From the NCBI GenBank assembly GCA_963758295.1, contig CAVWUU010000002.1:230555-294554 (forward strand): a DNA stretch of 64,000 bases, read 5' to 3'. Shown piece after piece: positions 15,001 to 18,000 of the stretch; positions within the stretch are counted from its first letter, which is position 1; each line of letters opens with the position of its first letter. Made by a program: the position numbers. The stretch is from Candidatus Eremiobacteria bacterium. GTDB taxonomy: Bacteria > Vulcanimicrobiota > Vulcanimicrobiia > Vulcanimicrobiales > Vulcanimicrobiaceae.

Positions 15001-18000
15001 TTTCCGCGCGTCGCTTTGAAATACCCGACTTGCAGAATGACCGAGAGCGCTTCGGCCACGAAGACGGCGCCGATCAATATCAGCAGCAGCATCTCGCCTT
15101 CGAGAATCGCAACGCCCGAGAGCAATGCGCCGAGCGCGAGCGATCCCGTATCGCCCATGAACATTCTCGCCGGGTGGCGATTGTAGATGAGAAATCCGAG
15201 ACACGCGCCGATGCCGAGCAACGAGGCGATACCGGCTGCCGGCATGGTAAGCTCAAACGCGATGGCGGCAAGCACCGCGAGCGGTGGAAGCATCGTTCCC
15301 GTCGCGAGTCCGTCCAAGCCGTCGGTCAGGTTTACCGCGTGGATCGTCCCGGTTACCGCGATGATGCCCAGCACGAGCCAAAGCCAGTGCGGCGCCACAA
15401 GCGCGTACGTTCCGGCGTGAAACAGCACGTCGCGCGGAAAGAGATTGTACGAATCGCCAAGCGCGCGCAAGAAAATAATGGCAAGCAGCGCCGTCGCAAG
15501 ATATTTCGTGCGCGCGCTGAGTCCGAGATTACGGCCGCGACGGATCGCCAGATAATCGTCGATACATCCAACCGCACCACAACCGAGCACCAGCACCGCG
15601 AGCGCCGGCGCAAAAGGCGTATGCCACATCGCAGCCAGCGGCAACATCGCAAGTCCGAAGAGGATACCGCCCATTGTCGGCGTGCCGGTCTTCTTCTGAT
15701 GGGTTTCAGGCGCGTCTTCATAGGCGTGCTGGCGGAACTGCATGCGGCGCAGAAGCGGCAACAGTACTGCACCGCCCGCAACCGCAATGGCGAAGCCGAT
15801 GACGAGGGCTAAAGCCATGGTCGAAAGCGTCATGCGGCTGCGCCCTCTTCACGCAAGAGCGGGTTGCGGCCGCTTGCGCGCCACTTCAAGACGACGATCG
15901 GCGTTTGCTCGTCGCCATTGCCGTGCGGATTATCCAGCAGGGCGCGTTCCACGGTTTCACGATCCACGCCGGTGGATGCGCCGAGCACTTTCGCCTTCTC
16001 CAAATCGTTCGCGTCGACGACGACGCATGCAACGCCCGTTCGTTCGAACACCGCCTGCGAAAACGCATCGGGCTCCCGGGGCGCAAACACGATCGCGCGT
16101 TCGTACGGCGGCAACGTTCCGGTGTACCCGTCGAGCGCCGTAATCGCTTCGCCCATCACTTCGTAAAATACGCCACGCCGGCCGCGCAGACGTCCCAGTA
16201 CGTGCATCACGGCGGCATACACGACCTTCGCCGGGCCGACTTCGTCGATGACGAGTTGCAGCGATTCCGGTTGATTGACTGTGGCCAGCGCCCCCGCACG
16301 GCGCGACAGCGCATAGGCGAGTTTGGAAGGGCGCACGTACTCGGCGGGAACGAACTCGCCTTGCGCGATGGCGACGGCTGTTTCCGAAATGGCGATCGCG
16401 TCGCCGGGACGCGCGATACCGTTCACGGCATCCGAAACGATGGAAAGCAAATCATCGCCCGGACGAACCAAACGCGTACGAACCGGAATTGCGACGAGTC
16501 CTGGCGGGACTTCGGGACGGGTAACGGCAAGCGTGCGGCTCATCCGCGGAACTCCTCGACGATTTCTTCTAATTTGTATTTTCGGGAGCCCTTAAGCAAA
16601 ACCGCATCACCCCGACAAGCATTTACGCGCAGCCACTGCGCCGCTTCGCTATTCGAGCCAAATCGGAAAATGCGCTCCGAGGCAAGCCCTGCATTATGCG
16701 CGCCGAGCGCAAGCTCGTCTGCGAAGTCGCCGCCGAATAGCGCGACGTCGACGTGTATCGCCGCGGTATGCGCGCCGACGCGGCGATGCAGTTGTGCCGC
16801 TTCGTCCCCAAGCTCGGCCATACTGGAGAGCAAAGCAATACGCCGTCTCGCCGGCTCGGCAGCAAAGGCATCGAGCGCTGCAATCGTACCGCTTGCATTG
16901 GCGTTATACGCGTCGTAGATCAGCCGGATACCGTCCACGTCGATCGCTTCGTAACGCCCTTTCGGCAGCTCGATCGTTTCCATTGCGTGCGCAACCTCTC
17001 CAAAGTCCGCACCGAGTTCCAACGCTGCAGCGGCGGCTGCCGCCAAGTTGGAACGGTTGTGATCGCCTGGAACGGTAAGGTTTACCGCGCACTCGCGAAC
17101 GACGCCGTCGAAGCGGTGCACGAACCAATCGCGGCCCAACAGGGCGGTGAGTCTCGAACGTAACGGCATGGTCGCGCCCGGCGCGCCGGCCAAAAACCAG
17201 TGCGGCGCTTCCGGCAACGTCGACGCGCGCGCGCGCGATGCTCGATCGCATTCATTGACGATCGCACGTGCGCCCGTTTCAAAGATCGACCACTTCGTCG
17301 TTTCGAGCCGCTCGCGCGAGCCCATGATTTCCAAGTGCGCGTCACCGACATTCGTGAGGACCGCAACATCCGGTTTCGCAATTTCGGTAAGGACGGCGAT
17401 GTCGCCGTAGTGGCGCGCGCCCATCTCCACGACGAGTACGTCGTGATCTTCGTTCGACGCGTTCAGCAATAATTTGCTTACGCCGATTTCATTGTTTTCG
17501 TTCGCCGGCGCGGCCAAAACCCGATCGCCGTAACGCGTGGCGAGCAGTTGCGCGGTGAAAAACTTCGTCGTCGTCTTGCCGGCGCTGCCGGTGATTGCGA
17601 CGACCCGGCCGGTGAAACGGTCACGCGCCAAACCTGCAAGCGTCATGTACGCTCTCAACGTATCTTTAACTAGCAGCGCCGTTGCACTGGGCGGCAGCAC
17701 CGACGCATCGTCGACAACGAATGCAGCTGCACCCTTCTCCGCCGCTTCCGCAACGAAGGCATGACCGTCAAAGTGTTCGCCTCGGAGCGCCAAAAACGTA
17801 TCGCCGGGTTGCAACGAACGCGTGTCCGTCGTAATACGAAGCAACGCCGGTGCGCGATCGGCGTTGATGACGGAGGCACCCGCTGAAGCACGCGCATCTT
17901 CGAACGCCAGCTTCACGCGTGGGTCTCCCGCCGAATCAACGCGCGCCGCGCCACCGCGACGTCATCGAACGGCAGCGTTTCAGCACCGACGATCTGGTAC

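Follow-up and report, generated by a model that had tools for sequence, protein, structure and literature searches.

Polyamine modification of peptidoglycan has been known since the 1980s, and in diderm Firmicutes the outer membrane is anchored by polyamine carried on D-Glu. Diamine attachment to the α-carboxyl group of D-Glu in Selenomonas and Veillonella was reportedly described by Kamio and co-workers; the activity goes by the name "lipid intermediate:diamine transferase". To our knowledge, the only use of polyamine-bearing peptidoglycan is the anchoring of OmpM. The accessible part of the literature describes, as a reaction of Negativicutes, how cadaverine or putrescine becomes attached to stem-peptide D-Glu, and the available portion of one report presents peptidoglycan-bound polyamines as a well-conserved feature of these bacteria (PMC5020339). 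A literature search outside subscription journals and supplements found neither a named gene for polyamine attachment to peptidoglycan nor a paper linking PF01996 to peptidoglycan.

Other enzymes acting on the wall precursor are defined genetically. MurT/GatD, the lipid II isoglutaminyl synthase, modifies the D-Glu α-carboxylate of the lipid-linked precursor in the cytoplasm via an activated acyl intermediate, as given in the available part of its description (PMC3266927). The alternative D-Glu route of Xanthomonas, MurD2/MurL, includes an extra ATP-dependent editor of UDP-MurNAc-peptide encoded with mur genes; according to the part of the report at hand, MurL "lacks known conserved domains" and is found in the absence of a glutamate racemase (PMC8788868). 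Mpl, the UDP-MurNAc:tripeptide ligase, is a dispensable Mur ligase acting on the lactyl carboxylate of the wall precursor. In the F420-0:gamma-glutamyl ligase CofE, the fold of which also forms FbiB's N-terminal domain (PF01996, TIGR01916; PDB 2PHN, 2G9I, 7ULD), a domain-swapped β-hairpin and R234 hold F420 (PMC10861534).

Here we analysed a gene encoding a 237-residue protein, designated X, in a 64,000-nucleotide stretch of the genome of a Candidatus Eremiobacteria bacterium (the window). X has the CofE fold, yet it is not CofE, and falls into a distinct, uncharacterised branch of the superfamily that shares this fold.

Position of X in the cell-wall cluster and its conservation

The placement of X between murF and mraY on the minus strand, given in the first-pass annotation, was recovered from the DNA as an ORF with ATGA overlaps on both sides (Table 1). 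The frameshift-split murD carries MurD-like_N and Mur_ligase_M in 13996-14952 and Mur_ligase_C in 13473-14108, and both parts share one frame in a relative locus (L004). The own genome also encodes MurI (144 bits) and an alanine racemase fragment. As these two, Ddl, MurB and MurC-MurF were all present, X was rejected as a replacement for a missing precursor enzyme.

Table 1. Features in the window around X, with the nearest polyamine-type gene.
Feature	Position	Strand	Evidence or remark
X, 237-aa CofE-fold protein (P0001)	15830..16543	minus	ATG-start ORF, PF01996, AF2 model
ATGA overlap, murF stop codon/X start codon	16540..16543	minus	DNA reading
ATGA overlap, X stop codon/mraY start codon	15830..15833	minus	DNA reading
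mraZ (22492-22935) and rsmH 5' part (21754-22485), cluster head	21754..22935	minus	MraZ; Methyltransf_5 (profile 2-176 of 309 only)
Class B penicillin-binding protein (FtsI-like)	19367..21118	minus	Transpeptidase and PBP_dimer domains
murE, scoring as diaminopimelate-adding type	17913..19370	minus	NF001126 523 bits (cut-off 373)
murF	16540..17916	minus	Mur_ligase, Mur_ligase_M, Mur_ligase_C; TIGR01143 350 bits
mraY	14871..15833	minus	Glycos_transf_4; TIGR00445 268.8 bits
murD, frameshift-split into two overlapping ORFs	13473..14952	minus	domains on both ORFs
ftsW, two overlapping ORFs	12307..13480	minus	FTSW_RODA_SPOVE profile 3-137 and 132-355
murG	11187..12305	minus	Glyco_transf_28 N- and C-terminal domains
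murC	9811..11187	minus	Mur ligase domains
murB	8852..9814	minus	MurB_C and FAD_binding_4
ddl, last gene of the cluster	7911..8855	minus	Dala_Dala_lig_N and _C; TIGR01205 285 bits
Agmatinase	2212-3000		~12.8 kb from X; nearest polyamine-type gene

The gene was near-universal in Eremiobacterota (296 of 301 genomes) and, within the class of X, always occupied the slot between murF and mraY. In the 80 relatives' loci, obtained by a search with a narrow X alignment that yielded Eremiobacterota only, murF was directly upstream in 79 and mraY directly downstream in 79, the two misses being contig ends. These counts agreed in direction with the order-wide neighbour count (297 of 352) given in the first-pass annotation. 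An overlap of four nucleotides (-4 nt) joined murF to X in 68 of 79 loci and X to mraY in 64 of 79. A stop-free in-frame join of murF and X was found in one of 79 loci (L081) and in a metagenome protein (P0124), and a widespread MurF-X fusion, at which long open frames had hinted, was thus dismissed.

X was also strongly constrained. The count of 1764 homologues in the first-pass annotation was reproduced at E<=1e-3, the best 120 of the 1764 being 77-92% identical. The median identity to the own-genome protein was 75.5% for X, compared with 66.0% for MraY, 61.5% for MurE and 57.0% for MurF, and in 75 of 78 loci no other gene of the cluster was as well conserved as X. Sixty of the 237 positions were invariant in 81 sequences, including D48, E54, D138, D177, N179, D180, N205, N209, D211, E212, Q213 and T214.

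Relationship of X to CofE

The match of X to PF01996 (F420_ligase) scored 50.5 bits (cut-off 25), with residues 21-199 aligned to profile positions 2-112 of 218; its E-value of 2.6e-13 was close to the 1.7e-13 noted before, over the identical profile range. No other Pfam family matched at E<=0.01, and Mur_ligase_M and Mur_ligase_C were absent. An NCBIfam scan at E<=0.01 returned the two CofE models and nothing else, and X failed both as equivalogs, with 28.1 and 28.2 bits against cut-offs of 180.65 (TIGR01916) and 274 (NF009809).

The AF2 model of X reached a pLDDT of 92.2 and a pTM of 0.88, better than the "moderate" confidence stated in the first-pass annotation. The earlier observation that the model resembles A. 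fulgidus CofE alone in the PDB was reproduced in two ways. Foldseek retrieved only A. fulgidus CofE entries (E 2e-10; next match E 0.6), and VIA aligned 180 residues with 2PHN at Z 14.9, an rmsd of 3.0 and 24% identity (next Z 4.4). Comparison by hhalign of the X family with two true CofE sequences gave a probability of 97.6%, and the X family separated from CofE in the tree with support of 100/100.

Both proteins have the N-terminal motif around G-D...(E/Q)-G-R and the Asp of the S-D-S/T strand. Two profile alignments, made independently, matched D177 of X, invariant in 81 of 81 sequences, to the S-D-S/T Asp of CofE, a residue that we take to be a Mn ligand. In contrast, H-K...K before EGR, invariant between the two CofE sequences, corresponded to E54, T55 and I59 before Q-G in X, and the likewise invariant G-R-x-W-R to N-D-L-x, in which N179, D180 and L181 replace x-G-R. 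In a hand alignment, the invariant N205 stood opposite the Glu of the CofE A-E-L motif. The hhalign match stopped at residue 193 of X, with 33 residues of X against 55 in CofE; the hairpin of approximately 22 residues that covers F420 was missing from the AF2 model, and the C-terminal Arg region of CofE had no counterpart. H-K...K and G-R-x-W-R probably bind nucleotide or glutamate in CofE. As the residues around these presumed sites are replaced, nucleotide use by X is an assumption.

The own genome (3.03 Mb, 82% complete) was described earlier as having no F420 pathway, and our searches agreed: neither CofC nor CofD was found in it, the best match to CofG scored 59.7 bits against a cut-off of 213, and X was its only PF01996 protein. 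Of 81 genomes from the phylum, 25 contained true CofE, against none of 28 from the class of X; in two sister-lineage genomes (G050 and G003) it coexisted, at 254 and 198 bits, with an X-family gene. A role for X in F420 synthesis was rejected on the equivalog scores, the missing pathway partners and this coexistence.

For the claim that wall synthesis would be a new role of the CofE fold, the folate-linked homologues of TIGR04132 ("putative folate metabolism gamma-glutamate ligase") may be a precedent; like X as read here, they would be CofE-fold proteins with a non-F420 substrate. True CofE sequences match this model at 60-64 bits, whereas X does not match it at E<=0.01, and no folate genes lie near X.

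Relatives of X in other phyla

The X family was also found in Negativicutes, cyanobacteria, other Bacillota, Armatimonadota, Caldisericota and Actinomycetota, so that the family is not limited to one lineage as had been proposed. Sporomusa, Methylomusa, Pelosinus, Thermosinus, Propionispora and Lucifera carried it among the Negativicutes (71-88% conserved among the best 120 of 1553 matches), and Selenomonas and Veillonella were absent among the named matches of the same best 120 of 1553. Caldanaerobius also had a member. The nearest to the Sporomusa protein among 80 metagenome loci was at 58%.

Approximately 20 polar residues were invariant across phyla and differing gene contexts, some of them without nearby MurF or MraY. 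A long stem of 0.81 changes per site led to the clade of X; R63, invariant in this clade, is E, Q or R in the rest of the family, and D139, likewise invariant in the clade, is G there.

The 28 long relatives contained fusions of X with MurF (one), Amidase_3 (six), GATase/Asn_synthase (six), Polysacc_deac_1 (PgdA-like; one) and GNAT (X-GNAT; one, P0171), and the AsnB-type fusions were found in Pseudonocardiales. In the one Amidase_3-X fusion inspected (P0146), neither an export signal nor a membrane segment was detected. Neighbours of the relatives encoded Ddl, Amidase_3, DD-carboxypeptidase, PAP2, DedA/VTT, Amj, a MurJ-like flippase and LD-transpeptidase, and a weakly GNAT-like gene lay downstream of the X-family gene in seven of ten cyanobacterial loci. 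Together with the coupling to murF and mraY, the cell-wall fusions and neighbours supported a tie of X to peptidoglycan precursor synthesis.

Some relatives were membrane-tethered by a helix and a plain β-sandwich, either fused or encoded by a separate upstream gene. The model of this N-domain (pLDDT 91.0) consisted of one helix and a generic β-sandwich, with the TMEM106B luminal domain as best match (Z 9.4) and 11 chains at Z>=8. It yielded no hint of a function, and no homologue of it was found in the own genome.

A basic-amino-acid decarboxylase was present in 16 of 30 relatives' loci outside cyanobacteria and the membrane-anchored type (pyruvoyl ArgDC in 11, OKR_DC_1 in five), and Amidase_3 in 18 of these 30. 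When loci outside Eremiobacterota and cyanobacteria were merged at an X identity of at least 80%, 11 of the 19 resulting non-redundant clusters had a decarboxylase for arginine or lysine/ornithine, and 11 had Amidase_3 fused or adjacent; the four clusters with neither were contigs of at most 3.75 kb. No decarboxylase adjoined X in its own clade. The own genome does encode an OKR_DC-type decarboxylase, but its presence proves nothing, because decarboxylases and polyamines are common.

Possible function in precursor synthesis

The first-pass annotation had read X as a nucleotide-dependent amide ligase acting on murein precursors. Its non-F420 character, its CofE fold and its tie to peptidoglycan precursors were borne out; catalysis, ligase chemistry, nucleotide use and the identity of the carboxylate and the amine are what we infer. 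Our tentative reading, possible rather than probable, is that X is an amide ligase which attaches a di- or polyamine as a cap to a carboxylate of the stem peptide. X would be a cytoplasmic enzyme at the step from MurF to MraY, acting on UDP-MurNAc-pentapeptide or lipid I/II, and would link an amine by an amide bond to one of the stem peptide's free carboxylates, with the α-carboxyl of D-Glu as the best candidate. By analogy with CofE, the carboxylate might first be activated as an acyl phosphate, with the nucleotide triphosphate on the metal site. Putrescine, cadaverine or agmatine would be candidate amines. The clue to polyamines comes from the decarboxylase neighbours of relatives, together with recurring GNAT-type partners (the P0171 fusion and the downstream gene of cyanobacterial loci). 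The change of basic CofE residues to acidic, amide or neutral ones (E54, T55, I59, N179 and D180) suggests that a cationic rather than an anionic co-substrate fits.

Diamine attachment in Negativicutes is the same reaction as that proposed for X, with a stem-peptide carboxylate and a diamine forming an amide at the precursor stage, and the step described earlier as unknown in any bacterium may therefore be described already. The Negativicutes activity has no defined gene family; the X family occurs in several Negativicutes genera, and relatives lie beside diamine-forming decarboxylases. Should X ligate a di- or polyamine, its family would be the unnamed gene behind the polyamine-bearing peptidoglycan of Negativicutes. 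We know of no report of polyamine on cyanobacterial peptidoglycan or of such chemistry in Caldanaerobius. Unlike in the Negativicutes setting, the own genome (82% complete) yielded no SLH domain; the use in anchoring OmpM does not obviously apply there, and outer-membrane anchoring through SLH/OmpM was rejected for this organism. The job of X in its own clade may also differ from that of its relatives, given the missing decarboxylase neighbour, the long stem and the departures at R63 and D139. A cytoplasmic Amidase_3 joined to a ligase is unexplained by the polyamine reading. A pyruvyl transferase is present in the own genome in two pieces. Cyanobacteria also speak against the polyamine reading, as they carry the family but their SLH proteins have been reported, in the available part of the source, to bind pyruvylated polymers (PMC10628300).

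The cell-wall evidence applies in full to another amine as well. In place of a polyamine, the cap might be ammonia, glycine, glutamate or some further small amine; X would then parallel MurT/GatD or AsnB/LtsA-type amidation with a CofE fold, and the decarboxylase neighbours would be coincidental. MurT/GatD would share with X the D-Glu α-carboxylate of the precursor as target, but MurT is a Mur-ligase family protein with MurT_C and GatD a glutaminase, and X has neither domain. The lack of a detectable MurT_C domain in the own genome (82% complete), the absence of an adjoining decarboxylase in the own clade, and the AsnB-type fusions, which join the family to a carboxylate-handling amidotransferase, favour this explanation. 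It leaves the decarboxylases of 11 of 19 clusters and the GNAT partners unexplained, however, and an acidic/neutral active site suits an anionic amino acid such as glutamate poorly; we regard it as unlikely.

The replacement of the CofE nucleotide and glutamate residues, together with an invariant set rich in Asp, Asn, Glu and Thr like that of many metal-dependent hydrolases and transferases, would also suit different chemistry on the peptidoglycan precursor, with X as a hydrolase, a phospho- or nucleotidyl-transferase or an epimerase-like ATP-dependent editor similar to MurL. MurL sets a precedent for an unexpected ATP-dependent editor of UDP-MurNAc-peptide, in the available part of its report (PMC8788868), but the same part gives it no known domain, and X, which matches CofE models and lies in a genome with MurI, was rejected as MurL-like. 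X matched only the two CofE models of NCBIfam, and the complement of precursor enzymes leaves no pathway gap for such an activity to fill. All characterised members of the CofE fold are, as far as we know, amide ligases; other chemistry is judged decidedly unlikely.

A non-catalytic X would, as a scaffold or regulator, bind MurF, MraY or both, or else the precursor, and pass UDP-MurNAc-pentapeptide to the membrane step. Such a role would be in keeping with the coupling to both genes, with conservation above that of the adjoining enzymes, as for a protein with several partners, with the membrane tether of some relatives and with the loss of CofE catalytic residues. The polar residues kept invariant across phyla, including in contexts without MurF or MraY, speak instead for a conserved site for a small molecule and not for a protein interface particular to one lineage, and the family is fused to enzymes and not to structural proteins; this role is improbable. 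It is highly improbable that X works in recycling, as an analogue of Mpl with the CofE fold, and ligates salvaged peptide to the lactyl carboxylate of UDP-MurNAc. The first substrate carboxylate of CofE is lactyl, like that of MurNAc (PMC10861534), and a cytoplasmic Amidase_3, fused or adjacent in 11 of 19 clusters, could free the peptide; on the other hand, recycling enzymes such as Mpl, which is of an unrelated fold, are usually dispensable, whereas X is near-universal and under very strong constraint as the best conserved gene of its cluster, and the decarboxylase link would be unexplained. Finally, the idea that X serves F420, or some other glutamylated cofactor, through salvage or through extension of its tail, with incidental operon placement, finds a basis in the PF01996 membership and in public records that call X coenzyme F420-0:L-glutamate ligase, but is close to refuted by the equivalog scores, the missing CofC, CofD and CofG, the lack of the F420-covering hairpin and C-terminal Arg region, the coexistence with true CofE where F420 genes occur, and a gene order fixed in every locus seen.

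Returning to the polyamine ligase, a wider and more doubtful proposal makes the X family the missing gene by which polyamines are bound covalently to peptidoglycan. This trait would be ancient in Terrabacteria (Negativicutes, cyanobacteria, Eremiobacterota and others), and in the Eremiobacteria class the gene would have moved into the core pathway, where every UDP-MurNAc-pentapeptide would be capped before MraY. The new observations are the spread of the family beyond Eremiobacterota, its fusions to cell-wall enzymes and the decarboxylases that lie beside relatives. Irrespective of their chemistry, X-family proteins are named "coenzyme F420-0:L-glutamate ligase" in thousands of public records, a label that wrongly implies F420 metabolism in organisms without F420. 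A cultured Eremiobacterota strain, cyanobacteria and Negativicutes would each allow a direct test, and X, better conserved than murE, murF and mraY, is a plausible narrow-spectrum target. If the polyamine reading holds, a gene would be assigned to a peptidoglycan modification that has no named gene in the literature searched, and the CofE fold would gain a further use with its active-site charge preference reversed. A whole soil phylum of global abundance would then carry an extra murein-precursor step, which in the Eremiobacteria class would be an obligatory one performed by a re-tooled CofE fold.

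Location and constraint of the gene in the cell-wall cluster

ORF and Pfam annotation detected a minus-strand division/cell-wall (dcw) cluster, complete within the window, in the order mraZ, rsmH, a 93-aa ORF, the gene for a class B PBP, murE, murF, the gene for the CofE-fold protein P0001, mraY, murD, ftsW, murG, murC, murB and ddl. The first-pass annotation had placed a CofE-like ORF between murF and mraY, and this was confirmed by the ORFs, the Pfam matches and the junctions, as the four bases ATGA were common to the murF stop and the P0001 start, and again to the P0001 stop and the mraY start. 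The G+C content of the region was even (0.60-0.62), and the gene thus bore no mark of recent insertion. The 93-aa ORF stands in the usual slot of ftsL. The cluster ended at ddl, after which genes for citrate synthase and an aspartyl-protease-domain protein followed, and none of ftsQ, ftsA and ftsZ was found there (window 5142-8855).

Coordinates of the features discussed. Plain numbers count along the window; prefixed ones refer to contigs C2 and C3 of the source genome (G000) or to the relative's locus L091 (G016:C61)
Feature	Position	Strand	Remarks
Agmatinase	2212-3000	(-)	TIGR01230, 175.6 bits against a cut-off of 174.3; few kb past cluster end
Alanine racemase ORF	3364-4194	(+)	without the first 104 profile positions of the N-domain; few kb past cluster end
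Aspartyl-protease-domain protein	5142-6509		
Citrate synthase	6344-7570		
ftsW	12307-13480	(-)	
murD	13473-14952	(-)	
P0001 gene	15830-16543	(-)	ORF of 237 aa, start ATG
93-aa ORF	21118-21399	(-)	between rsmH and the PBP gene; no Pfam match
rsmH	21146-22485	(-)	
Polysaccharide pyruvyl transferase (PF04230)	G000:C2:76469-77297		two pieces in different frames
Amidase_3	within G000:C3:56854-58133		immediately upstream of murI
Tethered relative of P0001	within L091:7826-10808		between ddl and DUF188 gene, one strand

The essential genes murD, ftsW and rsmH were each broken into overlapping ORFs in different frames, and the halves of murD shared one frame in a relative's locus (L004). As the source genome (3.03 Mb) was 82% complete in only 6 contigs, these splits look like assembly indel errors rather than pseudogenes. 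Unlike these three genes, that for P0001 had an intact reading frame.

The arrangement was compared in the best 80 of 335 relatives' loci, all from named genome records of Eremiobacterota/Vulcanimicrobiota MAGs. The gene was immediately preceded by murF in 79 of the 80 loci and immediately followed by mraY in as many, both misses being contig ends, and the 4-nt overlaps were kept with the murF stop in 68/79 loci and with the mraY start in 64/79. The median identity to the window proteins was 75.5% for P0001, compared with 68.6% for MurC, 68.5% for the PBP, 66.0% for MraY, 61.5% for MurE, 57.0% for MurF and 55.6% for MurG. P0001 was the most conserved product in 75 of 78 loci, above MurF in 72/72 and above MraY in 76/76, a ranking somewhat inflated because the loci had been ranked by similarity to P0001. 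Sixty of its 237 positions were invariant among 81 sequences.

Comparison with CofE and relation to F420

The match of P0001 to PF01996 (50.5 bits) covered the first half of the Pfam profile only, and the two NCBI equivalog models for CofE (F420-0:gamma-glutamyl ligase) gave 28 bits, their cut-offs being 180.65 and 274. By sequence search alone, the CofE entries of the PDB matched no more than residues 24-89, with an E value of about 0.03. With 38 diverse relatives as its basis, AlphaFold2 gave a confident model (pLDDT 92.2, pTM 0.88). A Foldseek search of the PDB with this model returned only the CofE of A. fulgidus (E 2e-10; next match E 0.6), and VIA-align gave the same protein with a Z of 14.9 (rmsd 3.0, 180 residues; next Z 4.4).

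For comparison, other genomes of the phylum supplied two true CofE sequences (TIGR01916, 254 and 198 bits), and profile-profile alignment of the P0001 family with them gave a probability of 97.6% over 164 columns. P0001 keeps the N-terminal G-D...(E/Q)-G-R region as well as the Asp of the CofE S-D-S/T strand (D177), presumably a manganese ligand in CofE, and the latter correspondence was also obtained in an independent profile alignment to 2PHN. In contrast, H-K...K ahead of E-G-R was replaced by E54, T55 and I59, and G-R-x-W-R by N179, D180 and L181. The invariant N205 stood at the Glu of the CofE motif A-E-L-x-x-G-K in a hand alignment of the C-terminal motifs. About 22 residues were missing at the place of the long hairpin of CofE, which wraps over F420 according to PMC10861534. 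Because the basic motifs of CofE are replaced and the hairpin residues lost, with the Asp and the N-terminal region kept, P0001 is, judging from these alignments, a re-tooled active site on the CofE scaffold, with acidic or neutral residues at the basic positions of CofE.

P0001 was the only PF01996 protein of the source genome (82% complete), in which neither CofC nor CofD was found and CofG was represented by radical-SAM relatives only, below threshold (59.7 bits vs 213). The first-pass statement that the genome lacks an F420 pathway was thereby borne out, and the statement that the model matches only A. fulgidus CofE in the PDB held in both structure searches. True CofE occurred in 25 of 81 sampled genomes of the phylum, all belonging to four families of other classes (f6, f18, f19 and f20, over the TIGR01916 cut-off), and in none of the 28 sampled genomes of the window's class (Vulcanimicrobiia). 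As true CofE is confined to these four families, F420 capacity in Eremiobacterota seems restricted to particular lineages. The P0001 family was detected in 296 of 301 genomes (286/291 when 10 unpublished genomes, all with the gene, are excluded), 232 of 233 high-quality genomes and 98 of 100 genera of the phylum. The genomes with true CofE also carry it; these are two paralogues, each with its own job. The majority of NCBI records name the homologues 'coenzyme F420-0:L-glutamate ligase', and JGI records name two of them (P0071 and P0098) 'ribosomal protein S28E/S33'; both names are misleading.

The family outside the class and its neighbours

When 1.84 billion cluster representatives were searched exhaustively with phmmer, 738 relatives came up at E<=1e-3, of which 95 reached E<=1e-30. 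Many relatives were longer proteins with the P0001 domain at one end. The 28 relatives scanned for domains included fusions to MurF (1), Amidase_3 (6), glutamine amidotransferase/asparagine synthase (6), a membrane segment plus polysaccharide deacetylase (1) and GNAT (1), and several proteins of about 400 aa whose N-terminal part had no domain assignment. According to record names, the family extended to Xenobia (the sister class), Limnochordales, Caldanaerobius, Natranaerofaba, Candidatus Fermentithermobacillus, Thermodesulfobium, Armatimonadota, Caldisericota, Pseudonocardiales and the Negativicutes Sporomusa, Methylomusa, Pelosinus, Thermosinus, Propionispora and Lucifera; the cyanobacterial members were placed by neighbour genes such as Crr6, DUF3685 and heme oxygenase. 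In maximum-likelihood phylogeny (54 sequences) the family stood apart from CofE (support 100/100), the window's class formed a clade of its own (99/100) whose stem was long, at 0.81 changes per site, and Xenobia grouped with Armatimonadota, Negativicutes and cyanobacteria, not with the window's class.

In Xenobia, cyanobacteria and others the domain followed an N-terminal helix and beta-sandwich, modelled as a generic sandwich (pLDDT 91.0), which in some Bacillota was encoded by a separate gene just upstream. This part was read as a membrane tether. Because the helix is followed by Arg residues in P0131, P0135 and P0137, the three sequences inspected, the positive-inside rule would place the domain of the tethered forms in the cytoplasm. 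P0001 lacks such an anchor and is coupled to MraY instead.

For the neighbourhood, 132 neighbour proteins from 25 of 80 metagenome loci of a Bacillota-centred alignment were annotated, and the recurring ones were then sought in all 80 loci by tblastn. About 35 loci were cyanobacterial and shared one operon of the tethered form, a weakly GNAT-like protein (weak match in 7/10 cases, one only above the Pfam threshold), RuvX and a DUF1292/DUF3727 protein. This operon (L141, L148, L150, L156, L170, L177, L138, L151 and about 27 more loci) was kept over a range from marine types of low GC (0.23) up to GC 0.6, its GNAT-like protein having 343-474 aa. Among the 30 loci of neither cyanobacterial nor tethered type, Amidase_3 adjoined or was fused to the domain in 18, and a basic-amino-acid decarboxylase was present in 16 (pyruvoyl arginine decarboxylase in 11, Orn/Lys/Arg decarboxylase in 5). 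When loci with at least 80% identity in the P0001 homologue were merged, 19 clusters resulted, of which 11 had the decarboxylase, 11 had Amidase_3 and 15 had either; the remaining four were contigs of at most 3.75 kb. Other neighbours were Amj, a MurJ/Polysacc_synt-type flippase, PAP2, a DedA/VTT protein, DD-carboxypeptidase and LD-transpeptidase, which are cell-wall genes handling lipid-linked precursors, and at the Xenobia-type locus L091 a tethered form lay next to ddl and a DUF188 (YaiI/YqxD) gene. Independently of the window's operon, two themes recur: precursors of peptidoglycan, and the enzymes that begin the synthesis of di- and polyamines. The source genome also encodes, upstream of murI, an Amidase_3 protein with 36% identity to a CwlD-like protein, an echo of the Amidase_3 link of the relatives.

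Candidate substrate of P0001

It is likely that P0001 acts, by whatever means, on a peptidoglycan precursor. In Negativicutes, cadaverine or putrescine forms an amide with the D-Glu alpha-carboxyl of the stem peptide, as described in the consulted parts of PMC5020339, PMC10628300, PMC12826042 and bioRxiv 10.1101/2021.05.31.446380, parts that leave the gene for the attaching enzyme unnamed. A literature search found no paper naming such a gene and none tying PF01996 to the cell wall. Joining a carboxylate and an amine into an amide would be the same chemistry as that of CofE-fold enzymes, the acidic and amide residues in place of the basic ones of CofE would suit a cationic co-substrate, and the GNAT partners would be in keeping with a product whose distal amine is free. 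Because the precursor and polyamine themes recur, the chemistry fits, and the site charge and GNAT partners suit, we tentatively propose that P0001 attaches a di- or polyamine as a cap to a carboxylate of the stem peptide; in the window's class it would do so between the MurF and MraY steps, with UDP-MurNAc-pentapeptide or lipid I as its substrate.

Several points stand against this proposal. It is the window's clade that lacks a neighbouring decarboxylase; this clade lies on a long branch and departs at two positions that do not vary in the rest of the family (R63 is E, Q or R; D139 is G). The substrate may have changed on the move into the dcw operon. Nucleotide use is an assumption, and CofE residues that might bind nucleotide are gone. 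The conservation pattern is that of a protein which is essential and has either a demanding active site or several partners. Among the rival readings, the same ligase with another nucleophile is rather unlikely, the decarboxylase being frequent beside the relatives; a different chemistry on the precursor is unlikely, a role as partner of MurF and MraY without catalysis is quite improbable, and a recycling ligase is very unlikely.

No SLH-domain protein was found in the source genome (82% complete), and the known use of polyamine-bearing walls is therefore not obviously applicable. Cyanobacteria carry the family, yet their SLH proteins bind pyruvylated polymers, as stated in the part of PMC10628300 consulted. 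The polysaccharide pyruvyl transferase gene of the source genome was found in two pieces. Inspection of the Amidase_3 fusion P0146, which keeps what we take to be the amidase catalytic residues (motifs G-H-G-G, S-I-H and V-V-E), revealed no export signal, a further point against the polyamine proposal. An OKR_DC-type decarboxylase in the source genome, the agmatinase in the window and the absence of a detected MurT from the source genome are weak, non-specific points. Service to F420 or another cofactor is scarcely credible given the equivalog score of 28 bits, the lack of any CofC or CofD hit in the source genome (82% complete) and the coexistence with true CofE.

New here are this coexistence, the quantified coupling and constraint, the tree, the wide spread of the family within Terrabacteria, with Negativicutes and cyanobacteria among its bearers, the counted decarboxylase link and a polyamine hypothesis that is specific and testable. 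The family consists of CofE-fold enzymes with a different site, whose substrate is probably a cell-wall one.
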